From Candidatus Caldarchaeum sp. (GTDB lineage Archaea > Thermoproteota > Nitrososphaeria_A > Caldarchaeales > Caldarchaeaceae): 64,000 nucleotides of DNA. A program made the translations under genes and the position numbers. The stretch lies in assembly GCA_038844785.1 (NCBI GenBank), contig JAWBRA010000004.1, positions 1,496 through 65,495 of the forward strand, in the 5' to 3' direction. Below, piece by piece: positions 3,229 through 61,838 of this stretch. The notes under the pieces are model-generated. The model had not been told where the DNA came from and made no database searches. It saw only the letters and a list, made by a program, of their open reading frames with translations. Positions within the stretch are counted from its first letter, which is position 1. Each line of letters begins with the position of its first letter.

Positions 3229-3672
3229 ATGAAGGGTCGGTCTTCGGTTGGGTTAAGCCCTCTGGTTGCTGTGATACTGTTGATAGCCATAACGGTCGCT
3301 GCAGCGGTGGTGGTGGCAGGCGTTTTCTTCAACCTCAGCAGCATAGCCGGCAGAAGGCCGACAGCAATCATCGACCAGATAAAGCTCGTCGCGACCCCTG
3401 CTGGAGCAGGAACGTGGGCGGTTGTCATCAAAAACACAGGCGACGTGAGAATTACAGGCCTCTCTACTCCTACGTTCCCCGATGGATGCTCGGCGGCCGC
3501 CGGATGGACCTGGAACCCCTCAACAAACGTTAACCCCGGCGCGACCACCGCCGGCACTGGTAGCGCGTCTGGATGTACGCTAGGAAACACCTACCGTATA
3601 TCAATAACAGTGACCTTCCAAGACGGTTCAACACAGGTTTTGGCAACGGCGGTAACAGCATCAATAGCCTAA
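3229..3672 (+). CDS. archaeal type IV pilin / archaellin-like protein (class III signal peptide)
   Basis: MKGRSSVGLSPLVAVILLIAITVAAAVVVAG matches the archaellin/pilin N-terminal consensus. The listed ORF begins at 3127, but the internal Met at 3229 gives the canonical prepilin N-terminus. Confidence 0.6.
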   Translation: MKGRSSVGLSPLVAVILLIAITVAAAVVVAGVFFNLSSIAGRRPTAIIDQIKLVATPAGAGTWAVVIKNTGDVRITGLSTPTFPDGCSAAAGWTWNPSTNVNPGATTAGTGSASGCTLGNTYRISITVTFQDGSTQVLATAVTASIA

Positions 3673-3716
3673 ACCCATAAACATTTTTTAAAATAAACCT
3701 GCAAAGACTTAAAAAG

Positions 3717-3724
3717 GTTATAAA
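3717..3724 (+). promoter_or_regulatory. TATA box (TTATAAAT) with A-rich BRE-like upstream, about 27 nt before ATG 3747
   Basis: aaaaaggttataaatcat motif in the 75-bp intergenic region. Confidence 0.45.
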
Positions 3725-3746
3725 TCATTCCACACCCAGACGACGG

Positions 3747-4151
3747 ATGGCTGTGAAAACCGGTGGAATCAGCTACGTAGCCGGAGTCCTCCTCGTCCTA
3801 GCCGTAACCGTCTCGACCATAGCCCTTTACACTACGGTGGTGGGATTCCAGTCCCAAACCATCCTCAGCCTCTCAGCCCTCGACATACGCAGAGCAAGCG
3901 AAAGCCTCATTATCGTCGAATACCACAGACCAACCAACACTTTAGTAGTCTACAACAACGGGCTCATCCCGACATGCTTCGTCGAAATAACCGTCGCCGG
4001 AATGGGCGTGGTGTACAGCAACCCATCCTGCACCCCAATCCCACCAAATCAAGCCACAACCCTAACCCTAGCACTTATAAACCCGCCACAAACACTCACA
4101 CTAATAGCCAGAACAATCCACAACAAAATACTCACATACACAATCAGCTAA
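3747..4151 (+). CDS. small pilin-like protein (class III signal peptide) with Thr/Pro/Asn-rich C-terminal low-complexity tail
   Basis: MAVKTGG|ISYVAGVLLVLAVTVSTIAL N-terminus; third consecutive prepilin-like gene. Confidence 0.55.
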   Translation: MAVKTGGISYVAGVLLVLAVTVSTIALYTTVVGFQSQTILSLSALDIRRASESLIIVEYHRPTNTLVVYNNGLIPTCFVEITVAGMGVVYSNPSCTPIPPNQATTLTLALINPPQTLTLIARTIHNKILTYTIS

Positions 4152-4201
4152 ACAGCAAAAAGACTTATACCAACCCAGCCAAAAAATAACACGGGAAACA
4201 A

Positions 4202-5128
4202 TTGGCGGCAAAGACAAAGAAAGAAATACTCAAACTCCTCAAAGAAGACGAAGAATTCCGATACGCAGTAGCAGGACTCATAGGGCTGGAGGAAACCCTG
4301 AGAAGACTGGACAAACTCGACCAAAGAATGACAGAACTCCACGAACAACAGGTAAAACTCTGGGAGGAACTCAGAACCCTGAGAGAGGGCCAGGAAAAAC
4401 TCTGGGAGGAGGTCAGAAGCCTAAGAGAGGGCGAGCACAGGCTTTGGGAGGAGGTGAAAAGCCTTAGAGAGGGTCAGGAAAAGCTTTGGGAAAACCAAGG
4501 CAAGCTATGGGAGGAGGTCAAAAGCCTAAGGGAAGGGCAGGAGAAGCTGTGGGAAACCCAAAGCAAACTCTGGGAGGAGGTTAAGAGCCTTAGAGAAGGT
4601 CAGGAAAAGCTTTGGGAGAATCAAAGCAAGCTATGGGAGGAGGTCAGAAGCCTTAGAGAAGGGCAGAACAGGCTGGAGGAATCCATGATCCGCCTTCAAG
4701 ACGCCGTTACACTGCTGACTCAGGCTCACAGGGAGTTGGCGAAACAGGTTGGCGCCCTCTCCGAAACCGTTGGCTTCGGGCTTGAGGACATAGCTAAAGT
4801 CGTTGTTCCTGGCTGGCTCCAAAGGCATGAGGGAATAGTGATGGCGGAGGAGTTCGTCCGCAGATGGATAACGGTGGACGGGGAGGAGATAGAGGTAAAC
4901 CTTTACGGCGAAGGGGTGAAAAACGGCCGGAAACTAGTCATCGTCGGCGAGGCCAAGTCGAGGATATACAAGCGTGAGGTTGAGGCATTTGACGCATGGG
5001 CTGAGAAGGTATCTGCGAGCGTCGGCGGGGAAGTGTACAAGTTCATGTTCGGATACCTCATACATCCGTCAGCCGAGGAAGAGGGAAGGAGAAGAAAAAT
5101 AACGCTAATAGCGTCCTACATGCGTTGA
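4202..5128 (+). CDS. coiled-coil protein with about 9 tandem 14-aa repeats (KLWEEVKSLREGQE) and a C-terminal putative PD-(D/E)xK nuclease-like domain
   Basis: DNA-level 42-bp (and 21-bp half) repeats at about 4350-4680 with synonymous variation. C-terminus has ITVDGEEIEVNLYGEG...KLVIVGEAKSR, a D...E-x-K pattern in beta-strand context. Confidence 0.55.
   Translation: MAAKTKKEILKLLKEDEEFRYAVAGLIGLEETLRRLDKLDQRMTELHEQQVKLWEELRTLREGQEKLWEEVRSLREGEHRLWEEVKSLREGQEKLWENQGKLWEEVKSLREGQEKLWETQSKLWEEVKSLREGQEKLWENQSKLWEEVRSLREGQNRLEESMIRLQDAVTLLTQAHRELAKQVGALSETVGFGLEDIAKVVVPGWLQRHEGIVMAEEFVRRWITVDGEEIEVNLYGEGVKNGRKLVIVGEAKSRIYKREVEAFDAWAEKVSASVGGEVYKFMFGYLIHPSAEEEGRRRKITLIASYMR
4350..4680 (+). repeat. 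in-frame 42-bp tandem repeat array (about 9 units) inside CDS 4202..5128
   Basis: Repeated gggaggaggt(c/t)a(a/g)aagcct(a/t)agaga(a/g)gg(c/t)cag... units visible by eye. Confidence 0.7.
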
Positions 5129-5203
5129 GAGAATTTTAAACGAACAGCGAGGCTATCCAGTATACCCAAAAGGCGTGATTATTAATGCTACGGCTCTAAA
5201 CCT

Positions 5204-5751
5204 GGGACTGTCAACTTAAGGTCTATGGCCTGGGTCTTTCTATTCGTTGGGGTGGATAGAGTTGGGGTTGGCCTAGGCCGTCTTATAGGTTTCTTCGGTG
5301 ATAGGAATGTTTTTCCCCGTCTCAGGACGTCTCCGTGGGTTTAGGGCTGTCGGCGTTAGGCTATATGTCGAGGGGCTCAGGAGGGTAGCTGGGATGTTAT
5401 GCGAGCTAGGGTTTCAGGTAAGCCTTGAGTCTGTCAGGGGTTGGTTCCATATCTCGTCAGGAGGGCCTATGTATGGGCTGATAGCCGAGTGTATAAGGTT
5501 TCTTGAGGTGGTTAGGGTTAGGTACGCTAGTAACCCTGCCGTCTACAGGGATAGAGTTCCATGGTATGGATGGCCTATGAAGGTTCTGGGCTTGAGGAGG
5601 GTGGAGACGTTCGGCAGGAGGAACACGATAGAGTCATGGTTCAGCGGGCTGAAGAGGAGGATAAAACAGTTCAACACGTGCTCCCCAACATACAGGCCGA
5701 AGGTACCGGAGAAGTGGATAAAGGCATGGGTGTCATTAAGTTGACAGTCCC
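5204..5751. mobile_element. IS6-family insertion sequence derivative (internally deleted, about 548 bp) with perfect 16-bp terminal inverted repeats GGGACTGTCAACTTAA and 8-bp target-site duplication CTAAACCT (5196-5203 and 5752-5759)
   Basis: TIRs at 5204-5219 and 5736-5751 are exact reverse complements. The flanking 8-bp direct repeat matches IS6-family TSD length. The internal ORF has an IS6-like HTH and C-terminal N-x-IE-x7-KRR motif but lacks the DD catalytic core. Confidence 0.65.
5298..5744 (+). pseudogene. truncated IS6-family transposase (N-terminal HTH plus C-terminal E-motif region; central DDE segment missing)
   Basis: GMLCELGFQVSLESVRGWFH resembles the IS26 Tnp HTH. RRNTIESWFSGLKRRIKQFN resembles NNxIExxHxxxKRR. 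Length is 148 aa against about 230 aa for intact IS6 transposases. Confidence 0.5.
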
Positions 5752-6056
5752 CTAAACCTCGTCGCCAAACTGAAGGCTACCTCACCCTTGGCCACAGCCC
5801 GTCTCACATACCTGATGTGGATAGAAACACCTAAGGCCAGAACAAAGACTTCAACCGCTAAGCCCAGCGATATGTTGAGGAAAAACGTGAGGGGAACCAG
5901 CAGAATGATTGAAACGATTGCTTCACCGGGGTTTTCGACGGTGTTCACATATCTTCTCCGTCTTTGACTCTCCAGCGCGGTCGACGGTCCAAAATCTTTC
6001 TCGAGCTCCTCCACCATCCCAAAACCGCTCTCTAAATCTGCCCAAAAAGGCGAAAC
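5736..6056 (-). pseudogene. partial paralogous copy of the FlaJ/TadC-like membrane-protein gene (equivalent to about residues 120-250 of the 6156..7544 product), truncated by the IS insertion
   Basis: Translation ...WADLESGFGMVEELEKDFG...RRRRYVNTVENPGEAIVSIILLVPL... aligns with ...GEDLESGFGVVEKVEKYLE...WRRYVDTVETLGEAIVSIILLVPL... of the intact gene. DNA similarity is visible (5913-6060 vs 7046-7190). The stop codon is supplied by the IS terminal repeat. Confidence 0.55.
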
Positions 6057-6155
6057 TCATGGCTTAGATGGCAATACTTGGTCTAAAATGAACACGGGAA
6101 ACCACTGGTCATGCGGAACGTGAACCAGGGAGGTAGTCACGAAACCCCGCATGCA

Positions 6156-7544
6156 CTAGACAAAGAGCGAAGCTATTGAGTAGGCGACGAGCGTGGCTAT
6201 TACTCCTGCACCAGCCCTCCAGACGGCTGCAACAGTCTGGTCTTCGGTCTTGGAAACCGCCACCCCCAGACTGAAGGAAACTATGAGTGCGTTTGGCAGT
6301 ATGGGTTCAAGGGACGGCGTTATGACAAGCTTTTGAACCTCACTTGAGACTTCAGGCGGTAGTGACGTGAACGGCATGATTGCGAAGCTTGAAACGGCTA
6401 TGATTGCCGCGCCGCTTGCGATGGCTAACGCGTCGTAAAGCTTCATCCTTGCTCTTGCGTTGGTGAAGCTAAGGTAGATTGTTATGGCTAGTCGGGCCAT
6501 CAGGCTAAGAGCTTCCGCGCCCAACCCGCCTAAACGAGCCAGCTTGACGGTTTCGATGGACATTCTCATGAACCGGTTCAACGGCTTTACTTCAATACCT
6601 CTCACGATAGCCTTTGCGTACCTAGCGTAGCGCGGGTCGGCAACCATCTCCAAGCTCTTGCCCACAGGGTACCCCGCCCTAAGCCGTGCCGCCACGCTGT
6701 CGAGAAGCAGGAAGGAAGACTCTCCTTCTGAAACACAACGCCTGATATATCGAAAGTGTACGAACAATCCCCAGCCCAGAAGGAGAAGACCGATGGCGGG
6801 CGGAATCATCACCAACGACGTGTTGAGAAAGAACATGAACAAAAATGCTCCAGACACGGCTATGAGAGCTGTTGAGGTGTAGACAATTATGCGTGGGATG
6901 TCAACCAGATGCATAGGCTCGCTTGCAGACGCAATAGTATAGAAGACCGCCGCAGCACCCACTGAAATGAACACGGAATAAAAGGGGGGGAAACCTCCCA
7001 ATATGCCGCCCACGACGTACATCAAAGGAACCAGTAGTATGATTGAGACGATTGCTTCTCCGAGAGTTTCGACGGTGTCGACATACCTTCTCCATCTCTC
7101 GCTCTCCCTCGATATAGATTGTTCCAAATACTTCTCAACTTTTTCCACGACTCCGAATCCGCTCTCCAAATCCTCTCCTAGGGAACCTATCAACAGAGAG
7201 AACTCGCGGCTCGGATGAACGTATTTCTTGAAGCTCTCAGCCAGAGTTGTTTTTTCCCCGACTCTTCTCAGATAACCCGCCTCATGTGAGAGCTTGGCGA
7301 TTATTTCTCGCTTATGCGCCGCCTCCGTCAAAGCATGCAGCACCGTCTTGCCGCTTCTCAAGATGATGTACAGTATCGCAAGAAAATACGTCTGCTCCCT
7401 CTCGGCCGCGGCCTTTTTCTCAGAGTCTGAAATCCTCCGTCGAAGCAAAAGAACCGCTACGGCGAATGATACAATCGATATATGAGGCCAGTAGCTGGAC
7501 ATGAAGCTGAGCAAAAAACGACCTATCGCTTGGGTTTCAAGCAT
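6156..7544 (-). CDS. FlaJ/TadC/PilC-family polytopic membrane protein (type II secretion system F-domain), pilus assembly platform
   Basis: 462 aa with multiple TM helices and two cytoplasmic helical domains. Sits in an operon with the PilB/FlaI-like ATPase. Confidence 0.65.
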   Translation of the reverse strand: MLETQAIGRFLLSFMSSYWPHISIVSFAVAVLLLRRRISDSEKKAAAEREQTYFLAILYIILRSGKTVLHALTEAAHKREIIAKLSHEAGYLRRVGEKTTLAESFKKYVHPSREFSLLIGSLGEDLESGFGVVEKVEKYLEQSISRESERWRRYVDTVETLGEAIVSIILLVPLMYVVGGILGGFPPFYSVFISVGAAAVFYTIASASEPMHLVDIPRIIVYTSTALIAVSGAFLFMFFLNTSLVMIPPAIGLLLLGWGLFVHFRYIRRCVSEGESSFLLLDSVAARLRAGYPVGKSLEMVADPRYARYAKAIVRGIEVKPLNRFMRMSIETVKLARLGGLGAEALSLMARLAITIYLSFTNARARMKLYDALAIASGAAIIAVSSFAIMPFTSLPPEVSSEVQKLVITPSLEPILPNALIVSFSLGVAVSKTEDQTVAAVWRAGAGVIATLVAYSIASLFV

Positions 7545-7555
7545 GACGCCAGCAC

Positions 7556-8503
7556 CTAAATCTTCTCTACCTCTATGCCGAATGTCTCACCTGTTTTAAA
7601 CGCGTTATCCTCCACGTCCGCTCCAGCGATGAACCATCGAACGCGGCCCACAACACCTTGGATGGCTGTCTTCTCGATGTCAAACCTTTTGACCGTCCAC
7701 GAGACTATGTCAAGTGAGGTAACCCTGTACTTGACTGTGTATATCCTTGTCTCAGACTTCTCGCCGCTTATTGCTACAATGTCGAGGAGGTGTTTGGTTC
7801 CGCTTATGCCGATAACTTCAACTTTCTCCCTTACTTCAAACCCCTCTGAGATGAGTTTTCTGATGAGTATCTTCAAAGGGTTGGCTGACTCTATCAGGCT
7901 AAGACCTTGGTCGGTCAGCTCGTATTCTCTGAGAATCATCTGGTCAGCATTTTTTAGTTCGTCGAACCATTCGCATGAAAGACATTCAGCAAGGTAAAGA
8001 GGTTCTGTGAAGATGTTTCCGCACGTGTTGCAGACAAACCTGAAGCCCGCGGTGTTTAAGCTTTTTTCAAGGGTATCTCTACACTTGGGACATACGTCCA
8101 AAGTTTTGACGACGTTTTCAGGTATTACCGCACCGCAGCTATGCATAAAGATGAGAGATTTTGTGATGTCTTCAGACCTGCACGACGTGCAAGCTGTCCG
8201 CGGGTTGAGAAGCGCGCCGCTACATTTAGGGCATCTTAATAGTTTTCTCGAAAACTTTGACCTGAGAAGGTTGTTGTTAACAAGGAAGTCAAGTCTTTCC
8301 ACAAGTTGTTGAACTGACGTGTTTGCTGGCAAATCAGACGAGAGCCTGACCTCGTTAAAAGGCTGGATGACTTCGAAAAAAGTATATGGTTTTCCCTGCC
8401 TAAACATCTCGGCAACACGCATGAGGATCGCAAAATCCTCGGGCTTTAAGCTACTCTGCGACAACTTCCTCCCATCTTCGCTGTTGGTCAACTGCTTTTG
8501 CAA
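7556..8503 (-). CDS. winged-helix-like N-domain plus double zinc-ribbon (CPKC..CTSC, CPKC..CNTC, CLSC) protein of unknown function embedded in the pilus operon
   Basis: Cys pairs in the translation. N-terminal helical HTH-like segment. Lies between the ATPase and the membrane-protein genes. Start may be the internal Met at 8422, which removes the 53-nt overlap. Confidence 0.45.
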   Translation of the reverse strand: MQKQLTNSEDGRKLSQSSLKPEDFAILMRVAEMFRQGKPYTFFEVIQPFNEVRLSSDLPANTSVQQLVERLDFLVNNNLLRSKFSRKLLRCPKCSGALLNPRTACTSCRSEDITKSLIFMHSCGAVIPENVVKTLDVCPKCRDTLEKSLNTAGFRFVCNTCGNIFTEPLYLAECLSCEWFDELKNADQMILREYELTDQGLSLIESANPLKILIRKLISEGFEVREKVEVIGISGTKHLLDIVAISGEKSETRIYTVKYRVTSLDIVSWTVKRFDIEKTAIQGVVGRVRWFIAGADVEDNAFKTGETFGIEVEKI

Positions 8504-10022
8504 GTTCCTCCGCCCTCATTTTAGCATTTTGCTCAAGAAGTTTTTCAATGATGGCAACATTCAACTCGTATCTTCTTCTCAGCTTTGCATCGTTTACAAG
8601 CGTTGGGGAGTTCAAGGCCAGCTGTCGCCGGTTCTCGGGGAAAAATCTATTCAGCGACTGGTCGTACCATGATATTAAATGCTCCTTGCCGACTTTCTCG
8701 ATCTCCCAAACACCTATGACTCTTCTGCCTCTAGGAGTTCCTCTTATCAACACAACGACGTCAAGGAAGCTGAGTTCTTCAGGTAACACGCCCATGCTGA
8801 CCGACGTTAGCCTCTGGTAGACATCTTCGAGGCCTTCGGCATGTATTGTCGAGGCCATGCCATGGCCTGTTGCGGCCGCGGAAAACATGACCCTAGCCTC
8901 TAATCCTCTAACCTCGCCCACAACCGTGTAGTCGGGTCTATGTCTTAGGCTGAGTCGCAGTATGTCGGCGAGGCTGTAGGCTGTTTCGCCGAGTGTTCTT
9001 CGGGTAACGAACCTGTGCCAGTTTTTGTGCCAAGAAAGATTGATCTCTGGATGATAGTCCTCGAGCGTGAGGATTTTGGCGTTGAAGGGTAGGAGCTGGA
9101 GCATGGCGGACAGGAACGTGGTTTTCCCACTTCCCGTCGGCCCAGCCACGATTACGAACTTCTTCGCCTCCAGCATCGTCCAGATGTATGCCGCAGTTAT
9201 TGGGTTGACTGTTCCGTTTCTGATGAGGTCTAAGATTGTGTAGGGCGATCGTGGAAACTTGCGGATGGTTATTGTGCTGGCGCCGGGTGTAAGCTCTCCT
9301 GCATATGTTAATGCAATCCTGTCGCCGTCATGTGTCATAACCTCGGCTGAAGGCTTTGCGATGCTCAGCTCGGCACCGTTCCTCTCAGCAAGAAGCCTCA
9401 CCTGCTTGTCCAGCTCCTCAGCCGTGAACTCGATGTTCGTCTCAATCCAAAGCAGGTCGGGATGTCTTCTGTGTATCACATAGGCTGGCCCAGGCTTGGT
9501 CACGGTTATGTCTTCCAGCTCCTCGTCACGTATCAAAGGCTCAAGCTTCCAGCTGCCCTTCAAATCCTTGACAACATGATATGTAACAGTTTTGAGCTCT
9601 ACTTCATCAAGCTCCAGGTCCTTGAGAATCTTTGAAGGCTCAACACCCTTCTTCACGTAGGCCTCCTCTATCTCGGCGACAATCCGCGCCAGTCTTTCGT
9701 CCAGAGCCGGTTCCTCCACAACGTATTTCACAGACCCATCCTTTTCAATTATCTTCACACTTAGGATTTCATCCACAGTATAATGTTCGATTACAGTTGG
9801 TTCAACGGTCTCTTGAGCAGGATGTGTTTCCTCCTCCTTTTGCATGGGTTTACGACGTCTTCGAAGAAAAGCAAAAGTTACTAAGACGGCTGCTCCTACG
9901 GGTGCAGCAACTATGGATGCGTTTAAGGGACTGGAGAGGATGAAACTGATAAAAATCAGGAATAGGGAAGTCACGATAGCGGCTACCTGTGATAGCGAGG
10001 AGAGCAGCTGCTCTAAGAACAT
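8451..10022 (-). CDS. type II/IV secretion-system ATPase (PilB/FlaI/VirB11/GspE family) with N-terminal hydrophobic extension
   Basis: Walker A VIVAGPTGSGKTTFLSAML, Walker B/His box region, and typical N-terminal domain. The first about 55 aa contain two hydrophobic segments. A TATA element 30 nt upstream supports the 10022 start. Confidence 0.8.
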   Translation of the reverse strand: MFLEQLLSSLSQVAAIVTSLFLIFISFILSSPLNASIVAAPVGAAVLVTFAFLRRRRKPMQKEEETHPAQETVEPTVIEHYTVDEILSVKIIEKDGSVKYVVEEPALDERLARIVAEIEEAYVKKGVEPSKILKDLELDEVELKTVTYHVVKDLKGSWKLEPLIRDEELEDITVTKPGPAYVIHRRHPDLLWIETNIEFTAEELDKQVRLLAERNGAELSIAKPSAEVMTHDGDRIALTYAGELTPGASTITIRKFPRSPYTILDLIRNGTVNPITAAYIWTMLEAKKFVIVAGPTGSGKTTFLSAMLQLLPFNAKILTLEDYHPEINLSWHKNWHRFVTRRTLGETAYSLADILRLSLRHRPDYTVVGEVRGLEARVMFSAAATGHGMASTIHAEGLEDVYQRLTSVSMGVLPEELSFLDVVVLIRGTPRGRRVIGVWEIEKVGKEHLISWYDQSLNRFFPENRRQLALNSPTLVNDAKLRRRYELNVAIIEKLLEQNAKMRAEELAKAVDQQRRWEEVVAE

Positions 10023-10047
10023 CCCCGGACTCCTACGGTAACGGTTC

Positions 10048-10056
10048 TTTATAAAA
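10048..10056 (-). promoter_or_regulatory. TATA box (TTTATAAAA) about 30 nt upstream of the ATPase start at 10022
   Basis: AT-rich nonamer in the divergent intergenic region. Confidence 0.4.
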
Positions 10057-10135
10057 ACTTGAGAAAAACTTGGAGGGGCTAGCTTGGGAATAGGACATAT
10101 GAATTATCGTGCATATACCCGAGTAGTATTACAGC

Positions 10136-31424: not shown

Positions 31425-31853
31425 TTGAGCGAGCTTGTTAAGATTGGAAGCCTAACCCCGCGTTCTAGGGGTGTAAACCTTGTTGCAAAAATTGTTGAGA
31501 AACCAGAGCCACGCATTGTCTCTTCGCAGTATGACCAGGCTGAGCATCGGCTGACGGAGGCGTTGATAGCAGATGAAACAGGCGCCATAACCTTGGTTCT
31601 ATGGGACGACAACATAGACATTGTGAGCGAAGGTGATTCGGTGAAGGTTACTAACGGGTTCATAAAGTTGTTTAAAGGTAGGATGCAGCTGAACCTGGGA
31701 AGGTTTGGGAAAATCGAGCCCGCAGACGTAGAGGTAACAAACGTAAACGTGGAGAACAACCTTTCGCAGAAGGAGAGCTATTTCTCGGAGGAAAGAAGAG
31801 GGAGAGGCGGGTTCAGGTCTAGAGGTTTCCAGAGACGGCGGCCGTTCAGGTAG
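31425..31853 (+). CDS. ssb: single-stranded DNA-binding protein (OB-fold) with C-terminal RGG-rich tail
   Basis: ALIADETGAITLVLWDD OB-fold core similar to crenarchaeal SSB; RRGRGGFRSRGFQRRRPFR tail. Confidence 0.6.
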   Translation: MSELVKIGSLTPRSRGVNLVAKIVEKPEPRIVSSQYDQAEHRLTEALIADETGAITLVLWDDNIDIVSEGDSVKVTNGFIKLFKGRMQLNLGRFGKIEPADVEVTNVNVENNLSQKESYFSEERRGRGGFRSRGFQRRRPFR

Positions 31854-33114
31854 CGTTCTCCGGTTCTACGATGAAAACGCCTTTCTCACGCCCAACTATT
31901 TTTACCTTTTCCTGCTCCCCCACTTTTTTGAGAGCTTTCGCCTTCCAATATTCCCCGTCCACCACGATATAGCCTATCCCGCCGGGCTCAATCGGTTCAA
32001 CAGCCCTGCCATATCTTGACATCCATTCCCCAGGCCTTTTTTTCTGGGCTCTGTAGGATTTGTAGCCGAGAAACCCTAGGAATGCTGCAGCAAACACCGC
32101 AATAGCTATCACGGTTGTCTGGAACCGTGTGAGCCATTCCTGAGCGACGAATCTAGGAACCGGATTGTATCCTCCCAGAAGTATAATCCCTACTGTGAGG
32201 GCGAATATACCACCAGCTCCCGCCAATCCGAACCCCGGAGACATGAGCTCGTACAGCAGTAAACCGACGCCCACGGCGGTTAGCAGAGCGCCCGCAACGT
32301 TGATGTTTAAGCCCTGACCCACCAAGCCTAGGATTATCATCAATCCTCCAGCCACTTCACCGCCCCAGCCTGGCGAGGTGAGCCCAACAAGAAGGACCAG
32401 TATGCCTAGGGTTATCAAAAGGCTTGAGACAAGCGGGTCTGAGAGCAGAGCAACAGCACCCGCCGTAATGCTTGGTCCTACCTTCGTAAGCGGCAGGCCT
32501 TTCACTCTTAACACTTTCTCACCGGCTAGGGTTTTAACCACTTTGCCGTCGGCATTTGATAGAAGTTCCTCCACATCGGTGGCCACAGCCTCGATAAGGC
32601 CTGCTTGCAAGGCTTTCTGAGGGTTGAAGTTTTTGTTCTCCAACACTATTTTTACAGCCTCGTCCCTGTTACGGCCTTGGGCCTCTGCAAGGGTTCCCAT
32701 CTTCTCGGCGAAAAAGTTCAAAACCTTAGAGTCGGTGACGGGCTCGCCTCCCGACACGGGCTGGGCGGAGCCTATAAGCGTTCCAGGAGCCATGGCAGCA
32801 TAATGCGTAGCCATAAGGATGTATGTCCCAGCCGACAGAGCCTTTCCCCCAGCCGGGTAGACATACCCTATCACTGGGACGGGTGAACGCTGAATTGTTT
32901 CTACTATCTTCAGCATCGCATCAGCCTGGCCGCCCAACGTGTCGATGGTGATCAACACAGCTGAGTACTGGGATGCATGTGTGAACGCTTCCTCGACGTA
33001 GGTGGCTGTCCCAAGCGAGATGTAGCCGTTTATCTCAACCCATAAGATGGCATTCTGTTGGCCGGCTGCTGAAAAGACGGCTGCCAGCAAGATAGCCGCG
33101 AATAAAAACCTCAT
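31846..33114 (-). CDS. NfeD-family membrane-bound serine protease (stomatin-operon partner)
   Basis: ClpP-like fold motifs (IDTLGG, GKALSAG) plus C-terminal TM and OB domain. The Met at 33114 gives an ATGA overlap with the stomatin gene. Confidence 0.7.
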   Translation of the reverse strand: MRFLFAAILLAAVFSAAGQQNAILWVEINGYISLGTATYVEEAFTHASQYSAVLITIDTLGGQADAMLKIVETIQRSPVPVIGYVYPAGGKALSAGTYILMATHYAAMAPGTLIGSAQPVSGGEPVTDSKVLNFFAEKMGTLAEAQGRNRDEAVKIVLENKNFNPQKALQAGLIEAVATDVEELLSNADGKVVKTLAGEKVLRVKGLPLTKVGPSITAGAVALLSDPLVSSLLITLGILVLLVGLTSPGWGGEVAGGLMIILGLVGQGLNINVAGALLTAVGVGLLLYELMSPGFGLAGAGGIFALTVGIILLGGYNPVPRFVAQEWLTRFQTTVIAIAVFAAAFLGFLGYKSYRAQKKRPGEWMSRYGRAVEPIEPGGIGYIVVDGEYWKAKALKKVGEQEKVKIVGREKGVFIVEPENAT

Positions 33115-33929
33115 TCCTGTTTTTTGGATCCCACGACCCCTAGCATAGTGGCCAGCTCTCTCGCACCGGAATCTGTAACCACAATCATGTTCTTTTCTCT
33201 GGCTATCTCGCTCCATGTCTGAAGCTCCCTTAAACGTAGTGCGATTGGGTGTTGTGCGTAGTAGTCAGCGGCTTGGGCCATTTTCTCAGCGGCCATAAGC
33301 TCTCCTTCAGCCGTTATTATCCTGCTCCTACGCTCCCTCTCAGCTTCAGCCTGCTTAGCTATGGCACGCTGCATCATTTCTGGGATGACAACATCCCTTA
33401 ACGCCACTGTGGTAACTTTAATCCCCCACGGCTCTGTTGACTCGTCAAGAATTTGCTGAATCCTCTTGTTGAGCTCGTCGCGTCTGGTCAGCAGGTCGTC
33501 AAGCTCGACCTGTCCTATCACATCCCTTAAAGTCGTTTGCGCCAGCAAAGCAGAAGCCGTAAAGTAATCCTTCACCTTCAGCACAGCCATCTGCGGGTCT
33601 ATGACCCTGAAGTACACTATGGCATCCACATCGACTGTAACGTTGTCTTTCGTAATAATACGTTGTTTGGGGACGTCGAACGTAACAAGCCTCAGGTCTA
33701 TGATACGGCGTCTATCTATGAATGGTAGAATTATCACTACGCCGGGGCCCTTGACGCCGATAAGCCGTCCCAAACGAAAAATGACCGCCCGCTCATACTC
33801 GGTGACTATCTTTATCGATGCTGAGAGAATTATCAAAAGCAGGAGCAGAAGTAAGAACAGTGGAATTATAGTTTCTGCTCCCAGCAGCAAGGAGAGATAA
33901 ATTGATTTAACTTCTGGCAGCAAGTTCAA
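33111..33929 (-). CDS. SPFH/stomatin-prohibitin family membrane protein
   Basis: N-terminal TM followed by SPFH domain (YERAVIFRLGR...). Confidence 0.8.
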   Translation of the reverse strand: MNLLPEVKSIYLSLLLGAETIIPLFLLLLLLLIILSASIKIVTEYERAVIFRLGRLIGVKGPGVVIILPFIDRRRIIDLRLVTFDVPKQRIITKDNVTVDVDAIVYFRVIDPQMAVLKVKDYFTASALLAQTTLRDVIGQVELDDLLTRRDELNKRIQQILDESTEPWGIKVTTVALRDVVIPEMMQRAIAKQAEAERERRSRIITAEGELMAAEKMAQAADYYAQHPIALRLRELQTWSEIAREKNMIVVTDSGARELATMLGVVGSKKQE

Positions 33930-34052
33930 TCCACTAAACCCATAGATATTTCGAGGTTATTTAGGCTTTCTTTATCGGCGAAATACCTATGAATCATCTT
34001 AAAACATATTCGAATTATATGTAAAAAGAGGGGAAGTTATAGTCTTATATCA

Positions 34053-35513
34053 TTGCGTTTTGAATTAGACATGACAACTATGGACGACGGCTCTGAAAGC
34101 TTTGGCCAGGAGGCGAAAGGTTTGGAGGAGGGTGAGACAACCGAGCTTCTAACCGCTTTGAAAAACATGGGAGTAGGCCCTAGTCAGGTAAAGAAGTACG
34201 TCAAAGCAGCGTTGAGGCTTAGGGAGCTGGAGAAACAGTATGGAAAAAGCTACAACGTGCTCGTCAGAGATTATGAGAAAAAGTTCAGGGATAGCGTGAA
34301 GCTTGAGTACACCATAAACGAGCTTCTCGAGAAAAGAAAGCGTATCGAAGACGACTTGAAGGTTTACATGGAGCAGCACAAACTCACGCTCGAGACAATA
34401 AACAAAGTCGTCGCCGTCCTCAAAACGCTTGAACAATATTCTGTTGACGTAAACAACCTCGAAAACCTTGCCAAAACAGCTGCCAAAATGTCTCAGGCAG
34501 GGCTTGATGTGAAAACGGTGTTCGAACGGTTCGCCCGTCTCGAGGAAGCTGAAAACAGCTTAAAGGCTGTTAACGAGAAGATTTTGGAGCAGCAGATGAA
34601 ACTTTCTCAGATTCAGTCCGAGCTCGCTGAAAAAGAGGAAAGGCTGCGTAAAATTACCCAGTGGATGCCTGAGCTGGAAAACCTCGAGCAGGTGAGGGAG
34701 ACGCTGGAAAACAAGGTTTCCGAGCTTGAAACCAAACATGCCGAACTCTCCAAAAAGCTCGAGAAGATGGCCAAAGAATACGAGACCCTATATGGTTTCA
34801 AGGGTGATGCGGAGGCCGTCTTCAAGGCCATAGAAGAAAAGAAGGCTGAGCTTGAGAGGCTTAACGATGAAATCGAGAGAAAAAGGGAGACCGTGGAGAT
34901 TTTGGAAGAAGAAGTCTCATCCGCCCGCTCGCTGTTGATGCTCCTCCAAAACCCGGAGCTGGTCAGAAGGGAGGATCTCGAGACGCTTTCACGCCAGCTT
35001 GCAAACGTAGCCAGCGTTAAAGCTGGTGAGATACCTATTCTAAAGCCTTTGGAACAACCTCTCGTGGAAAACGTTAGGAAAAGAGTAGTTGAACTCGTTC
35101 TTCCAGTGATAAAGAACGACCTCATACCGCGCTGGGTTTTTGAAAAGCTTGAGAAAGAGTTTAAGGAGGTTGTTGCCAAGAAGGCGCAGCTGGAGGAGGA
35201 GAACGAAAAGCTGAAAACCGAGCTGCAGCGATACACTGCCGCAAAACCCGTCTCATCCGAAGCTGCTCCTACTCAATCTGCCGTCTTCTTCAGGCTTCGG
35301 AAGAAAGCGATACTCCTTCAAGACGACAGAGGTGTCAGGGTTAGGCTTAAATGCCCATACTGTCAATCGACCAATCTTCTGGTCCTTCCTTCTAAGATGG
35401 AGTTAGAGAGATGCATGGGCGACGGCGAACTGCTGGTGACGACATGTAATGGTTGTGGAAAAGACATCTCAGTGGACCCTGTCTACCTACATGAGAGGTT
35501 CTACAAGGGGTGA
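34053..35513 (+). CDS. long coiled-coil protein with C-terminal zinc-ribbon (CPYC...CNGC)
   Basis: Heptad-rich translation for about 400 aa; four Cys at the C-terminus. Confidence 0.5.
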   Translation: MRFELDMTTMDDGSESFGQEAKGLEEGETTELLTALKNMGVGPSQVKKYVKAALRLRELEKQYGKSYNVLVRDYEKKFRDSVKLEYTINELLEKRKRIEDDLKVYMEQHKLTLETINKVVAVLKTLEQYSVDVNNLENLAKTAAKMSQAGLDVKTVFERFARLEEAENSLKAVNEKILEQQMKLSQIQSELAEKEERLRKITQWMPELENLEQVRETLENKVSELETKHAELSKKLEKMAKEYETLYGFKGDAEAVFKAIEEKKAELERLNDEIERKRETVEILEEEVSSARSLLMLLQNPELVRREDLETLSRQLANVASVKAGEIPILKPLEQPLVENVRKRVVELVLPVIKNDLIPRWVFEKLEKEFKEVVAKKAQLEEENEKLKTELQRYTAAKPVSSEAAPTQSAVFFRLRKKAILLQDDRGVRVRLKCPYCQSTNLLVLPSKMELERCMGDGELLVTTCNGCGKDISVDPVYLHERFYKG

Positions 35514-35893
35514 TGTTTTTGAGAGACGTTAACCCTGTTGTTAAAATGTTGAAATGGAAGACTAGGTTGTTGACTGAGGAAGAGATCATGCAGGTGTTGG
35601 CGGCCGTGGCCAACATCGGTAAAACACCTTTCACGCTTACCGACTTAACAGACACGCTCGCCGACTCGCTTTCGAAAGACGAGAAAAAGAGGCGAAGCAT
35701 TTCAACGTTCCTGACAAACTTGGTTGAGATAGGCTATCTGTCCAAGCCATCCGAGAGAAAATGGGTGAAGAACGCTGCAAGCTTCAGCAGATACCTAAGC
35801 CCGTTACTTATAGAGCTTAACGAGATAGAGAAAAACCCGCCTGCACGTGAAAGGCAGGAGAGAAAGATTATACAGTTGGAAGGCAGCCGATAG
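35510..35893 (+). CDS. small winged-helix-like hypothetical protein, translationally coupled to the coiled-coil gene
   Basis: ATGA overlap; helix-rich with FTLTDLTDTLADSL...LVEIGYLSK segment. Confidence 0.4.
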   Translation: MMFLRDVNPVVKMLKWKTRLLTEEEIMQVLAAVANIGKTPFTLTDLTDTLADSLSKDEKKRRSISTFLTNLVEIGYLSKPSERKWVKNAASFSRYLSPLLIELNEIEKNPPARERQERKIIQLEGSR

Positions 35894-35901
35894 AGAAGGC
35901 C

Positions 35902-36327
35902 ATGCCTAGAAAACCTTCTGACCCGAAGTCACCCCGCTACAAAGCCAGGATTGGATACGAGGGCGAATACAGTCTGCTGAGAAAGTTTGTGGCCATGGGT
36001 GAAAAAGGATTTTACGCTTTGAGGACTCCCGGAAGCGGCTCTGGGAAGATGGCTAAGCCGGACATTGTGGCAGTGGACGGCGGAGAGTTTCTCGCAGTTG
36101 AGGTGAAGAGCAGCGGGAAACCGTATGCCTTGCTCACTGCTGAACAGGTGGCGAGGTTGATGGAGTTTGTTCAGAGGTTTGAAATCAAATGCCCCCACTG
36201 CGGTAAAAGATTTAACCCTAAACCTGTCGCCGCTATAAGGTTCGTGGGCAGGGGATGGCGTTTTATCGACTTGTCAAAACATACCATCGAGAAAGGAGTT
36301 ATCGTGAGATGGGATGAAAATGGCTGA
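35902..36327 (+). CDS. hjc: Holliday junction resolvase Hjc
   Basis: GYEGEYSLLRKF..GFYALRTPGSGSG..PDIVAV..EFLAVEVKSSGK...RGWRFIDL matches the Hjc catalytic core (E..D..E.K), with a short CPHC-containing insertion. Confidence 0.75.
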   Translation: MPRKPSDPKSPRYKARIGYEGEYSLLRKFVAMGEKGFYALRTPGSGSGKMAKPDIVAVDGGEFLAVEVKSSGKPYALLTAEQVARLMEFVQRFEIKCPHCGKRFNPKPVAAIRFVGRGWRFIDLSKHTIEKGVIVRWDENG

Positions 36328-36772
36328 AGTCGACGATCTTGATAAAAAGATTCTATCAATACTCTACGAGGACGGTAGGGCTTCTTTCGCGGAGATAGGT
36401 AGAAGGCTTGGAGTAAGCGAAAACACCGTTCGTTTTCGTTTCAACCGGATGGTGAAAAACGGCGTGATAAGAAGAGTGACAGCATTGACCGACCATGCAA
36501 AGCTAGGGTTGAAAAACTCAGCGGCCTTGATGATTAAAATTGAACCATCCGGATTAGAAAACGTCCTTGAAGAGCTTAAATCCTTCAGGGAAGTTTACAA
36601 CATTTACCAGCTTTCAGGAGATTATGATGCGATAGCTGTTGTAATAGGCTACGACCTTAACCACGTTAGACAGGTCGTTGAGAGCATAAAGAAGATTAAA
36701 GGGGTTTTGTCGGTTAATACCTACGTTACGCTGAGGGTTGTCAAGGCTGACACCCGCTACGCTCTTGTGTAA
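36314..36772 (+). CDS. Lrp/AsnC-family transcriptional regulator
   Basis: LDKKILSILYEDGRASFAEIGRRLGVSENTVRFR HTH plus RAM domain. Confidence 0.8.
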   Translation: MKMAEVDDLDKKILSILYEDGRASFAEIGRRLGVSENTVRFRFNRMVKNGVIRRVTALTDHAKLGLKNSAALMIKIEPSGLENVLEELKSFREVYNIYQLSGDYDAIAVVIGYDLNHVRQVVESIKKIKGVLSVNTYVTLRVVKADTRYALV

Positions 36773-36796: not shown

Positions 36797-37960
36797 GTGT
36801 TAAGCAGCATGGAACCTAAACCATATGCCATAGTTCTACAGCATGATAGGTATAGACGTGAGTGTCTGAACCTAATAGCCAGCGAGAATGTGCTAAGCCC
36901 TGCTGCCAAAAGGGCCCTAGCGTCAGACATGGCCTCTAGATACGGCTTCAGACCAGAGTTTTACTCGGGCACTAGTAAGATACATGAGATTTGGATGTTG
37001 GCTGAGGAGCTTGGGAAGCAGGTTTTTAAAGCAGAGCACGTCAACGTCACACCTCTCTCAGGACACGTTGCCTTGATGACCTGTCTATATGTTTTGTGTG
37101 GAAAAAATGGAAAGATAGCCTGCGTAGACCCTTCAGCTGGTGGTTACCCTGGTCTTTTGCCCGACAAGATTCCGGAAATCTACGGATGTAGGGTTGTAAA
37201 CATCCCCTATGCCGACGTACATGTTAAAGCCGAAGAAGCCTTGAGCATACTGGACCGCGAAAAGCCTGATGTGGTTGTACTTGGGGCGAGCCTGTTTTTG
37301 TATCCCATTCCCGTCAGGGAGATTTCTGAATTCGTTCACTCCTACGGCGGACGCGTGGTATACGATGGTTCCCACGTGCTAGGACTAATAGCGGGCGGAG
37401 TTTTTCAAAAGCCTCTCGAAGAAGGGGCCGACGTGCTGCTAGGTTCTACACATAAATCTTTCTTCGGACCACAAGGAGGCATAATCCTAACAAACGACGA
37501 AAAAATTGCAAAACAGGTTGACGTCTCCACTTTCCACAAGTTTGTCGACAACATACACTTCAACAGGGTTGCAGCGCTTGCCGTTGCTCTTGACGAGATG
37601 AAAAGAAATGGACGCAGGTATGCTGAGAAAGTTGTGTCAAACTCCGCTGAGCTGGCCCGTTCTCTTGAAAACAACGGTCTTAATCCCTTTAAAACAGTTC
37701 ATGGATACACTAAATCTCATCAAGTATACCTGCCTTTTAAGGAAGATGAGGCTGTTAAAGTTAGGGACGTTCTTGAACGGTCGCGAATACTGGTGGACAT
37801 GGGGGTTAGGGTTGGAACAGCTGAAGTGACGAGAAGAGGTATGGGGCTTAAACAGATGTCAGCGATTGCAAAGCTCTTCAGAAGGGCTTTGAACGGTGAA
37901 AAAGTCGCCGCTGAAGCACGAAGCCTCGCTCTACGTTTCATCGATGTTAAGTTCACGTAG
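36797..37960 (+). CDS. glyA: serine hydroxymethyltransferase-family PLP enzyme (short archaeal form)
   Basis: LIASEN, VNVTPLSGHVA, STHKSFFGPQGG (THKTLRGPRGG-like) motifs. Confidence 0.6.
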   Translation: MLSSMEPKPYAIVLQHDRYRRECLNLIASENVLSPAAKRALASDMASRYGFRPEFYSGTSKIHEIWMLAEELGKQVFKAEHVNVTPLSGHVALMTCLYVLCGKNGKIACVDPSAGGYPGLLPDKIPEIYGCRVVNIPYADVHVKAEEALSILDREKPDVVVLGASLFLYPIPVREISEFVHSYGGRVVYDGSHVLGLIAGGVFQKPLEEGADVLLGSTHKSFFGPQGGIILTNDEKIAKQVDVSTFHKFVDNIHFNRVAALAVALDEMKRNGRRYAEKVVSNSAELARSLENNGLNPFKTVHGYTKSHQVYLPFKEDEAVKVRDVLERSRILVDMGVRVGTAEVTRRGMGLKQMSAIAKLFRRALNGEKVAAEARSLALRFIDVKFT

Positions 37961-37969
37961 GCGGGCGGT

Positions 37970-38935
37970 TTGAAGGCACGGGCCACAGCCCACACCATGG
38001 AGGGCTTAATCAAATACCACGGACTTAAGGACTGGAGTCTCAGAATACCCTACCACGACAGTATATCTGTAAACCTAGATGCTTTCACAACAGTAACTGA
38101 AGTTGAGTTCGGTGATTTTGGAGAGGATGCTGCTTTCATTGACAACGTGGCTGTTTCGGGTAGAGAGTTTGAAAGAATACGTCAATTGGTTGACCATGTG
38201 AAGAAACTCGCCGACATCTCCGAGAACTTCAGAGTTGTTTCCTTCAACTCTATACCTAAGGGGAGGTTTAAGGGATTGGGTTTTTCTTCCTCGGCGGGCG
38301 CGGCCTTGGCAGCAGCAGCCTACAAAGCATCTGGCCTGCATAAAATCTATGGATGGGACATGCGTCTTGTCTCGAGAATAGCTAGAAGGCTGGCCGGCTC
38401 AGCTTGCAGAAGCGTTGTGGGGAAGTATGCTAGATGGTTTGCGGGAACTTCGGACGAAGACTCTTACGCTGTTTGCTTTGCCGATGAGAAAGACCTTCCG
38501 CTCAAGGTTGTTGTTGTACCTCTTTCGTCAAAATACTCGACGGAAGAGGCTCACAGGGAAGCCGAGCTATCCACCTTTTTCGAGGCAAGGTTGAAAAACG
38601 CCAGCCTTAGATGCGACGTTATGGAGAGGGCCATCAGGGAGGGTGATTTCAAAACATTTGGCGAGCTCAAGGAGCTCGACGCAATAGAGCTCCATGCAGT
38701 CACTGCTACTGGTCCAAAAAGACTCATACTCGCTACAGACGAGAGCCTGAGGGTAATCTCTGAAGTCCGACGGCTGAGAGAGGAGGGGGTGGAGTGCTAT
38801 TTTTCGATGCAGACCGGGCCGACGGTCTTCATAAACGTACATCCAGAAGACTCTGGCTACGTTTTCGGCATGGTTGAGGACCTTGGGTTCAAGCCCATTC
38901 TCTCAGGGGTGGGCGGCCCCGTCAGAGTTGAGTGA
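37970..38935 (+). CDS. GHMP-kinase superfamily mevalonate-pathway decarboxylase (diphospho-/phosphomevalonate decarboxylase-like)
   Basis: EGLIKYHG (KYWGK-like) and GLGFSSSAGAALAAAA GHMP motif. Confidence 0.55.
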   Translation: MKARATAHTMEGLIKYHGLKDWSLRIPYHDSISVNLDAFTTVTEVEFGDFGEDAAFIDNVAVSGREFERIRQLVDHVKKLADISENFRVVSFNSIPKGRFKGLGFSSSAGAALAAAAYKASGLHKIYGWDMRLVSRIARRLAGSACRSVVGKYARWFAGTSDEDSYAVCFADEKDLPLKVVVVPLSSKYSTEEAHREAELSTFFEARLKNASLRCDVMERAIREGDFKTFGELKELDAIELHAVTATGPKRLILATDESLRVISEVRRLREEGVECYFSMQTGPTVFINVHPEDSGYVFGMVEDLGFKPILSGVGGPVRVE

Positions 38936-38973
38936 AGTTATTAAGCAGCTTTAACGTTATATGCGGTGCAAAA

Positions 38974-39141
38974 ATGGTTGAAATATCCGAGGAAGACATA
39001 CCGTTCTTCGCAGAGGTAACAGCAGGGGGAAGGATAACAATCCCTGAGGAGATTAGGAAAATCTTCGAGATAAAGGACGGCGACTCGCTGCTGTGCAGGA
39101 TAAGAATCGTCAAGAGGAAAATACAGCACGCCACCACATAA
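38974..39141 (+). CDS. AbrB/SpoVT/MazE-type swapped-hairpin DNA-binding protein
   Basis: GGRITIPEEIRKIFEIKDGDSL motif; start at MVEIS (38974). Confidence 0.5.
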   Translation: MVEISEEDIPFFAEVTAGGRITIPEEIRKIFEIKDGDSLLCRIRIVKRKIQHATT

Positions 39142-60799: not shown

Positions 60800-60869
60800 C
60801 TCAGTCCCAGTAGAGCCCGCTATTAGTTTTTATAAGCCGCAGTAAAATGTTGTAAATAGGGTTGAAGCG

Positions 60870-61838
60870 TTGACAATAAAGGAAACCCGTTACACATACC
60901 TTGAGGAACTTCCCGGCGTAAGCAAGGCTTTAGCGGACAAGCTGAGGGAGATGGGATATACAACGGTCGAATCCGTCGCCACAGCCACGGTAGCCGAGCT
61001 GATGGCGGTAGGTTTTGACGAAAAGCATGCATCACAGGTCATTGCAGCCGCAAGAGAAGGCATCGAAATCTCATGGGTTACTGCGAAAGAGCTCGCTGAA
61101 GTCAAAACATCGATAGGCCGTGTGACTACAGGAAGTAGCAGGCTTGACATGCTACTGGGAGGCGGAGTAGAGACTCAGGCTATTACAGAGTTCTTCGGCG
61201 AGTTCGGAACGGGCAAGTCTCAGATATGCCATCAGCTGGCAGTCAACGTCCAGCTGCCTGTCAGGAGAGGAGGGCTGGACGGAGCCGCCTTATACATAGA
61301 CACCGAAAACACTTTCAGACCCGAGAGAATAGTTGCGATGGCGAGAAACGTGGGGCTGGACCCAGACGAGGCTATGGAACGTATAATCTACTCTGAGGCA
61401 TACACAAGCGACCATCAAATGCTCCTCCTCGAGAAAGCGGACAAGGTGATAAAGGAGAAGAACGTCAGGCTTATAATAGTTGATTCTCTTACATCGCATT
61501 TTAGAAGCGAATACTTGGGCAGGCAGCTGCTTCCCGAGAGGCAGCAGAAGCTCAACAAACACATGCATAAGCTGGTCAGGCTTGCGAGAGCCTTCAACGC
61601 AGCCGCCGTAGTAACAAATCAGGTCATGGCCAAGCCAGACGATATATTCAGCACATCCGCCGTCTTCCCCGTAGGCGGGCACATAGTAGGTCACACCAGC
61701 CACAACAGGGTTTTGCTTAGGAGGGTAGCTGGAAGAGCCATAAGGATAGCGAGGCTCGTCTCAAGCCCATACCTACCCGAGGGGGAAGCAGTTTTCAAAA
61801 TAACTGAAAACGGAGTGGAGGATGTAGAGGATGGCTAG
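60870..61838 (+). CDS. radA: DNA repair and recombination protein RadA
   Basis: N-terminal HhH domain, GEFGTGKSQ Walker A, Walker B IIVDS. Confidence 0.9.

Follow-up and report, generated by a model that had tools for sequence, protein, structure and literature searches.

A Caldarchaeales-specific cassette of a coiled-coil zinc-ribbon gene and a winged-helix gene fixed between ssb and hjc

Introduction

Do the four genes that follow one another on the same strand around a Holliday-junction resolvase gene of Candidatus Caldarchaeum form a unit, and what might the two of them without recognisable relatives do? These questions are raised by a stretch of 64,000 nucleotides from Candidatus Caldarchaeum sp. 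(GenBank assembly GCA_038844785.1, contig JAWBRA010000004.1, positions 1,496 to 65,495; hereafter the window, whose first letter is position 1 for all coordinates given without a locus number). In it, a gene for a long coiled-coil protein with a C-terminal zinc ribbon (CC) is followed by the genes for a small winged-helix protein (wH), the resolvase Hjc and a regulator of the Lrp/AsnC family. A preliminary description of this DNA had proposed that they make up an operon-like block encoding an uncharacterised module for DNA repair, recombination or chromosome organisation, and had named the Thermoprotei as the group in which to check whether the neighbourhood is conserved. The NCBI taxonomy places the genus elsewhere, in the Caldarchaeaceae, order Caldarchaeales ("Aigarchaeota"), within the Nitrososphaerota. 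No member of the Caldarchaeales, thermophiles close to Thaumarchaeota, has been cultured, and what is known of how they maintain their chromosomes and divide comes from gene inventories only.

Results

The conserved unit is a cassette of two genes

We compared the neighbourhood of the locus in 50 species-level loci from GTDB representatives, retrieved with a wH profile, and in 48 metagenome loci retrieved with a CC profile, typing the neighbouring genes by BLAST (~100 loci in total, some of them redundant, with CC identities of 31–100%; loci and proteins are designated below by L and P numbers). The conserved unit is the pair CC-wH, a cassette specific to Caldarchaeales, and not a four-gene operon. 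The wH gene follows the CC gene within −14 to +31 nt in every locus that contains a CC gene and sequence downstream of it (~100 loci from two families), and homologue searches found both proteins confined to one order. The cassette is a single-copy locus of the core genome, fixed between ssb, the gene for a single-stranded DNA-binding protein (SSB), and hjc. With few exceptions in either family, the former lies upstream of the cassette; the latter adjoins the wH gene in every Caldarchaeaceae locus (Caldarchaeum, Pelearchaeum) and in every locus of Wolframiiraptor, Terraquivivens, Geocrenenecus and Benthortus. Genes for NreA and MazG occur near the cassette in many loci. One MAG (metagenome-assembled genome) of an uncultured Nitrososphaeria (L050) retains the wH-hjc pair and has neither the CC gene nor ssb at the locus.

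The surroundings of the cassette differ between families. Among the fetched loci, hjc is co-directional with the cassette in 24, all of them from Caldarchaeaceae, and convergent in 39, and the 48 metagenome loci are split in the same way. Where they converge, the wH gene and hjc mostly overlap at their 3' ends, by 6–140 nt (a 232-nt gap separates them in L031), and the sequences for the disordered C-terminal tails of wH and Hjc are there antisense to one another. The lrp, SHMT and MVD genes are neighbours in Caldarchaeaceae only, and lrp is not next to hjc in the Wolframiiraptoraceae loci. A stomatin/NfeD gene pair between ssb and the cassette is also restricted to Caldarchaeaceae (L001–L010, L016–L027, L030 and L068–L077) and missing from the Wolframiiraptoraceae loci. 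What stands of the four-gene block is thus the CC-wH pair beside hjc; the co-directional hjc and the adjacent lrp are features of a single family.

Two further observations concern these loci. The wH/hjc overlap reaches 86–140 nt in most Wolframiiraptoraceae loci, for example L057:6302-6390, L038:6275-6381 and L046:6260-6399, and measures only 6–20 nt in most Terraquivivens loci. In L050, two ORFs (open reading frames; 3510-4701 and 5989-6769) lie ~1.3–2.5 kb upstream of the wH gene; one of them resembles, by eye, a TnpB/IS200-605 transposon protein with a C-terminal CxxC...CxxC pair.

Gene layout and start of the coiled-coil gene

The four ORFs lie on the plus strand where they had been placed originally (Table 1), and they are real genes, since they are under strong purifying selection against their orthologues (dN/dS of 0.09–0.13 for all four against L030 and of ~0.05–0.06 against L016). 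The CC and wH genes share the hexanucleotide GTGATG, which gives the overlap of 4 nt reported before if wH starts at GTG and one of 1 nt with the ATG chosen by gene callers. The gap between the wH gene and hjc is 8 nt and not 9 nt, and hjc and lrp overlap by 14 nt, as described, or by 8 nt with the second ATG of lrp. The block had been taken to end at 36772; the tight co-directional run goes on through the SHMT gene, an MVD-like decarboxylase gene and an ORF of 69 amino acids up to 39141, with a 36-nt gap between lrp and the SHMT ATG at 36809, a 9-nt gap before the MVD-like gene and a 4-nt overlap before the last ORF. Copies of the locus, identical or nearly so, were found on hot-spring metagenome contigs.

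The 486-codon reading of the CC gene from a TTG at 34053 is probably too long. This TTG is only 2 nt past a TATA-like box (CTTATATC, 34044-34051) and the CC homologues have their first residue at the position of M10, so the start is most likely the ATG at 34071 or at 34080, for a protein of 480 or 477 amino acids. The box lies inside an element, GTTATAGTCTTATATCATTGCGTTTTGAATTAGA, that an alignment of upstream regions shows to be kept among Caldarchaeaceae orthologues with a variable spacing to the ATG. This conservation suggests that the element acts as a promoter, from which the CC mRNA would have a short leader or none. In several Caldarchaeaceae orthologues, another conserved motif (TTCGAAT followed by an AT-rich stretch, with the palindrome TTCGAA; 34010-34022 in the window) precedes the CC ATG by ~55–60 nt and may be bound by a regulator or serve as an alternative TATA/BRE. 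A further TATA-like sequence, ATTATAC, lies at 35867-35873, in the 3' end of the wH gene and 29–35 nt upstream of the hjc ATG, and might be an internal promoter from which hjc is transcribed without a leader.

The coiled-coil zinc-ribbon protein

Much of what had been read from the letters of the window about the four products held when profiles, alignments and structure predictions were applied to them: the CxxC...CxxC ribbon of CC, the winged helix of the second protein, the identities of Hjc and of the Lrp regulator, the CPHC insertion in Hjc, and the observation that the first two proteins resemble nothing familiar. The CC protein consists of an acidic N-terminal tail, a basic and conserved helical N-domain (~residues 30–150, isoelectric point (pI) 9.4), coiled-coil helices at 153–247 and 253–299, a conserved helical middle region (301–397) and a four-Cys zinc ribbon (~410–486). 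The coil varies in length among homologues and has a predicted break at ~248–252 (GFKGD), which contains no Cys; the members from outside Caldarchaeaceae carry ~38 additional residues just ahead of this break. In the AlphaFold2 (AF2) model, the protein is all-helical except for the zinc ribbon, which has good local confidence. Its two CxxC knuckles sit on β-hairpins (strands 429–433/440–444 and 461–464/471–474, in a block with pLDDT mostly of 83–89), and the four predicted ligands, C434, C437, C465 and C468, show no variation among 17 homologues (alignment A1) and are retained as a pattern in the most distant orthologues across the order. The domain therefore has the knuckles and the four conserved ligands of a zinc ribbon, with metal binding as a prediction.

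A homologue search with CC retrieved 23 proteins with 41–100% identity, all from Caldarchaeum or Nitrososphaerota MAGs, and synteny added orthologues at 31–35% identity in other genera; the dN/dS of the gene is 0.06–0.11. No Pfam, NCBIfam or PADLOC family reached its threshold with CC, the SMC, ASRP, Rad50 and JetC matches falling within the coil and 10- to 30-fold under their cutoffs. Pfam scans of the N-domain and the C-terminal half of many family members gave only generic sub-threshold matches, among them several to generic Zn_ribbon families for the ribbon. Sequence-profile searches of the PDB with alignments A1, A2 and A4 returned only designed or natural coiled coils and an insignificant match to bS21. 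For CC, the PDB holds no sequence or fold relative beyond the generic coiled coil and zinc ribbon. Segment-versus-segment hhalign comparisons within CC detected only coil-coil similarity, with a top probability of 60% between overlapping segments.

The small winged-helix protein

The second protein has 126 residues and a pI of 9.6. AF2 predicts a confident winged helix (pLDDT 87.2, pTM 0.76), and the complete topology H1-S1-H2-H3-S2-W1-S3 of a winged helix-turn-helix is present. Invariant residues are concentrated at the N-terminus of helix 3 (K-R-R-S) and in the wing (G-Y-L-x-K-P-S-E-R-K-W, here GYLSKPSERKW). A C-terminal helix follows and, in an otherwise variable tail, a short conserved motif, "(E)KII.LE", whose conservation suggests that it may be a docking peptide; it is kept even where the wH gene is solitary. 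We rejected the explanation that this motif is conserved merely through its overlap with the TATA-like ATTATAC upstream of hjc, because the motif is also kept in loci with a convergent hjc or with none.

The wH homologue search gave 47 proteins with 48–100% identity, and an exhaustive scan of 1.84 billion cluster representatives with a hidden Markov model found only 7 clusters related to wH. Between Caldarchaeum and Wolframiiraptor, wH is about as conserved as its housekeeping neighbours, with 50% identity compared with 58% for Hjc, 54% for LysRS and 33% for CC. Neither the family collections Pfam, NCBIfam and PADLOC nor the sequences and folds of the PDB yielded a relative of it beyond generic winged helices; Pfam scans produced only sub-threshold matches to the helix-turn-helix domains of regulators (HTH_IclR in 11 of 30 members, Penicillinase_R). 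The DNA-bound winged-helix domains of DpnI, Fur/PerR, histone H1 and Stn1 are among its best structural matches.

Comparison with known systems

The CC and wH proteins are orphan families made of common folds, and none of the known systems with which we compared them includes them. CC had been called SMC-like, and it does share a long α-helical coiled coil with SMC, Rad50 and ASRP proteins, and Cys-x-x-Cys metal-binding motifs with Rad50. However, the NCBIfam matches to these families span only CC residues ~44–400 and remain far under their cutoffs (ASRP, E = 1.5e-9, 37 bits vs 300; SMC_prok_A, 26.9 vs 729; Rad50, 23.5 vs 700). CC lacks an N- or C-terminal ATPase head, Walker A/B and signature motifs (the expression G-x4-G-K-[ST] for Walker A had no match in the ORF), and its ~480 residues contrast with the 600–1200 of those proteins. 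Its CxxC pairs belong to the zinc ribbon at the C-terminus, with none at the coil apex, the place of the Rad50 zinc hook and the SMC hinge. Headless, without apical Cys and scoring below the cutoffs, CC was therefore rejected both as a member of these families and as a Rad50 zinc hook, and of the SMC likeness only the coiled-coil composition remains. JGI labels of three CC orthologues (P0005, P0006 and P0020) read "chromosome segregation ATPase" or "DNA repair exonuclease SbcCD ATPase subunit"; as these proteins contain no ATPase domain, such names rest on coiled-coil similarity only.

The C-terminal winged helices of kleisins and the KITE proteins (Scc1-C, JetB, Nse1) resemble wH, which is itself a single winged helix of 126 residues that DNA-binding domains match equally well. 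Its profile matches are insignificant (JetA, E = 0.07, 12 bits vs 26.2; DUF4194 in 4 of 30 members, E ≥ 0.015), and the adjacent CC protein offers no ATPase head to which it could bind. With no profile at cutoff and a headless partner, membership of wH among the kleisins or KITE proteins (ScpA, Rad21/Rec8, JetA, MksE/JetB) was rejected.

DksA/TraR, YabA and HP0958 (COG1579) combine a helical coiled coil with a C-terminal four-Cys zinc module. CC is similar in architecture and has weak, coil-based Pfam matches to YabA. In contrast with these proteins, it is three times longer, archaeal, restricted to one order, accompanied by a dedicated wH partner gene, and without a significant sequence or fold match to them.

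The cassette is also composed, as the CdvA/ESCRT-I-like adaptors of TACK archaea are, of zinc-ribbon, coiled-coil and winged-helix modules. A Zn-ribbon-coiled-coil-CdvA-like family has been described in Thermoproteales (PMC11188069); CC carries its zinc ribbon at the other end. Neither the whole CC protein nor its N-domain had a CdvA or PRC-barrel match in Pfam scans, and in the sequence examined the cassette has genes of DNA metabolism, instead of cdvB and cdvC, as neighbours. The candidate identity of CC with CdvA was rejected on these grounds, the missing PRC/CdvA domain and cdv neighbours.

We likewise rejected a defence system or a mobile element, considering the fixed core-genome position of the cassette and the lack of any specific PADLOC or viral match: PADLOC gave only coil-based JetC/LmuB matches for CC and none for wH and Hjc, and the scan of IMG/VR viral contigs found no relative. 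In the literature on Aigarchaeota Hjc and on Caldarchaeales coiled-coil proteins, we found no description of the CC and wH families.

Hjc and the Lrp regulator

The third gene encodes an ordinary Hjc resolvase (PF01870, 66.6 bits vs a cutoff of 21.1; NCBIfam Hjc NF040854, 71.2 vs 70) of predicted activity. In an alignment with 1GEF, 2WCZ and 1OB8, its residues D54, E67 and K69 fall on the catalytic D33, E46 and K48 of the Pyrococcus furiosus enzyme (1GEF), and E22 is, by inspection, the probable counterpart of E9. Compared with other archaeal Hjc proteins (PF01870; 1GEF, 2WCZ, 1HH1), it is a bona fide member with the catalytic D/E-x-K aligned, and it differs from them by an order-specific insertion of 11 residues between the second helix and the next strand. 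Throughout the order the insertion keeps the motif CPxCG, which takes the forms CPHCG, CPQCG, CPECG and CPRCG in distant orthologues; since only these two Cys are conserved, a four-ligand zinc site would need more than a single Hjc monomer. The Hjc of Wolframiiraptoraceae ends in a disordered tail rich in Ser, Pro and Arg.

The fourth gene encodes a generic Lrp/AsnC regulator, outside the conserved unit, with an HTH_AsnC domain (PF13404, 57 bits vs 27) and an AsnC_trans_reg/RAM domain (PF01037, 50.1 vs 25). It reached no specific equivalog, its best NCBIfam match being LysM with 95 bits vs a cutoff of 180.

Other genes of the window

Several further features of the window deserve mention. The OB-fold SSB (31425-31853, +) has a C-terminal tail rich in Arg and Gly (RRGRGGFRSRGFQRRRPFR). 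The 69-residue ORF (38932-39141, +) has a sub-threshold match to the Pfam family MazE_antitoxin (E = 3.8e-4, 20.8 bits vs a cutoff of 24.7), and ORFs of 55–73 residues are called at its position in several orthologous loci. A RadA/Rad51 recombinase (60846-61838, +; Pfam Rad51, E = 4e-87, plus an HhH domain) is encoded ~24 kb downstream of hjc, unlinked to the cassette. On the minus strand, a protein that matches TackOD1 ("thaumarchaeal output domain 1") with 66.5 bits and contains a CxxC...CxxC pair adjoins an ATPase of the type II/IV secretion family (T2SSE); the two genes occupy 7556-8515 and 8451-10103.

Table 1 Features of the cassette and its surroundings in the window.
Feature	Coordinates	Strand	Length	Remarks
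CC zinc-ribbon gene (gene 1)	34053-35513	+	486 aa as ORF from TTG	
Small wH gene (gene 2)	35510/35513-35893	+	127/126 aa	
Hjc gene (gene 3)	35902-36327	+	141 aa	Pfam and NCBIfam above cutoff
Lrp/AsnC regulator gene (gene 4)	36314/36320-36772	+	152/150 aa	Pfam
SSB-like OB-fold gene	31425-31853	+		Pfam Ssb-like_OB, E = 2.7e-17
NfeD and stomatin (SPFH) gene pair	31846-33929	-		Pfam; divergent from CC gene
SHMT, MVD-like decarboxylase, 69-aa ORF	36797-39141	+		Prolong the co-directional run
Promoter-proximal element GTTATAGTCTTATATCATTGCGTTTTGAATTAGA	34036-34069	+		Upstream of CC gene; DNA-level conservation
CC zinc-ribbon domain	35280-35513	+		Two CxxC knuckles on β-hairpins and an inserted helix (AF2)
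Hjc insertion FEIKCPHCGKR	36181-36213	+	~aa 94-104	11-residue gap opposite 1GEF

Discussion

What could such a pair do? Our preferred reading, which we hold tentatively, is that CC and wH form a complex that participates in chromosome maintenance, wH binding DNA and CC acting as an adaptor, that is, as a dimeric scaffold or bridge. As the gene arrangement shows, the two proteins are made from one transcript and are translationally coupled, and most likely they assemble into a stoichiometric complex. The classical winged helix-turn-helix signature suggests that the wH subunit binds DNA. CC would dimerise via its long helices to serve as the scaffold or bridge, and its zinc ribbon and basic N-domain might hold wH, further proteins or nucleic acid. 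The field of action may be recombination and repair or, alternatively, nucleoid organisation and segregation; chromosome maintenance appears the most likely field because of the fixed site between ssb and hjc, often near NreA and MazG. It is from these neighbours, together with the classical features of wH, that a role in repair, recombination or chromosome organisation, as postulated in the preliminary description, may be inferred. The conserved TATA-like element of the cassette's own also counts for this reading, as do the high-confidence fold of wH, its basic pI and the invariant KRRS and GYLSKPSERKW on helix 3 and wing. The same holds for the invariance of the pair, its restriction to one order, the purifying selection on the genes, a conservation of wH on a level with housekeeping neighbours, the DNA-bound domains among its structural matches and the lack of a defence or mobile-element signal. 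Moreover, the neighbourhood proved to be conserved in related genomes and CC matched no known unrelated family, two points on which the proposal of a module could have failed. In Caldarchaeaceae only, an inversion set hjc directly downstream of the cassette on the same strand, and for this reason the cassette, hjc, lrp and the metabolic genes may be co-transcribed there.

Several observations weigh against this reading. The LysRS-SSB-...-Hjc region is syntenic as a whole, including the unrelated LysRS gene, which makes adjacency weak evidence of shared function. In most lineages hjc is convergent, and the overlapping 3' ends lock it physically to the wH gene, which could by itself explain their adjacency without any functional link. 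Only two families supply independent observations. In a third family, represented by a Calditenuaceae MAG (L063) and a "Thermoproteota archaeon" MAG (L064), the wH gene is solitary, with neither a CC gene nor hjc beside it; the gene for P0076, the most distant of the wH homologues, likewise stands alone, in an unrelated context (HIT protein, ABC transporter). Winged-helix domains also serve protein-protein contacts, and Scc1-C, the cullin/APC2 WHB domain and JetB match the wH fold as well as DNA binders do. The global confidence of the CC model is low (pLDDT 73, pTM 0.23), and neither protein has homology to any characterised protein. As a separate observation, the solitary wH gene of L063 (region 3499-6411) and L064 follows a cluster of genes for S11, S4, RpoD, L18e and L13, all but S4 recognised by eye in the translations, and keeps the motif EKIIRLE.

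The solitary wH genes of Calditenuaceae and of the P0076 lineage would be easier to understand if wH were a plain conserved transcription factor, possibly an autoregulator, and CC a structural protein of unrelated role that it regulates or is co-expressed with; the adjacency to ssb and hjc would then be residual synteny, reinforced by the overlapping 3' ends. The classical winged helix-turn-helix pattern, the weak HTH_IclR and Penicillinase_R matches, the synteny of the entire region and the conserved upstream DNA elements, including the TTCGAA motif, which could be operator sites, are all consistent with this explanation. Nevertheless, translational coupling and the 100% co-occurrence of CC and wH in two families, at CC identities of 31–35%, favour a physical complex; wH is more conserved than typical lineage-specific regulators, and its conserved C-terminal motif looks like a docking peptide. 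We consider a plain transcription factor rather unlikely. Improbable in a higher degree, in our view, is an adaptor of the ESCRT/Cdv type, in which CC and the free-standing wH would replace a missing CdvA, or act like ESCRT-I/II, recruiting CdvB/ESCRT-III to the membrane or the division site. Its appeal comes from the lineage, as Ca. C. subterraneum has CdvB and CdvC and lacks CdvA (PMC3082918), and from the modules, because archaeal ESCRT systems have repeatedly been assembled from winged helices, coiled coils and zinc ribbons (PMC11188069), the very types found in the cassette. Some of these systems include SPFH proteins that contain both a coiled coil and a zinc ribbon (PMC11188069), and in Caldarchaeaceae the cassette is divergent from the stomatin/NfeD pair; CC also has a weak match to PspA/IM30 (20.9–22.8 bits, under the cutoff of 33.9). 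However, none of the loci examined has cdv genes nearby.

Two other explanations find even less room. CC could be a degenerate SMC/Rad50 arm and wH its kleisin/KITE partner, the two bridging DNA without ATP as a headless pair; the likenesses already described invite this view, which is weakened both by the failure of the two proteins to group with either family and by the canonical SMC-ScpAB operon that the lineage has at a separate locus (PMC3082918), and we regard it as very unlikely. CC and wH might instead be an RNA- or ribosome-associated pair, whose winged-helix and zinc-ribbon domains would bind RNA. Yet the matches that would support this are statistically insignificant, both folds are generic and no other feature of a ribosomal protein was seen, so that such a role seems highly improbable.

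Returning to the complex for chromosome maintenance, a more elaborate version of it can be imagined, namely an ATP-independent DNA-organising or recombination-accessory complex in which wH would load the dimeric CC scaffold and which would cooperate physically with Hjc, through the CPxC insertion, at which the partners would dock or share a metal, and, at Holliday junctions or stalled forks, with SSB; or else the pair would be the missing adaptor of CdvA type. We judge this version, in either form, improbable, and as yet there is no evidence of an unusual mechanism.

The family-specific character of the four-gene arrangement matters for the transfer of function by gene neighbourhood in compact, highly syntenic genomes such as these. 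For the Caldarchaeales themselves, a pair of proteins that is strictly conserved, single-copy and coupled, has no relatives elsewhere and is encoded between SSB and Hjc is a concrete candidate for a lineage-specific genome-maintenance factor or for the missing CdvA-type adaptor, and both proteins are small enough for direct biochemistry.

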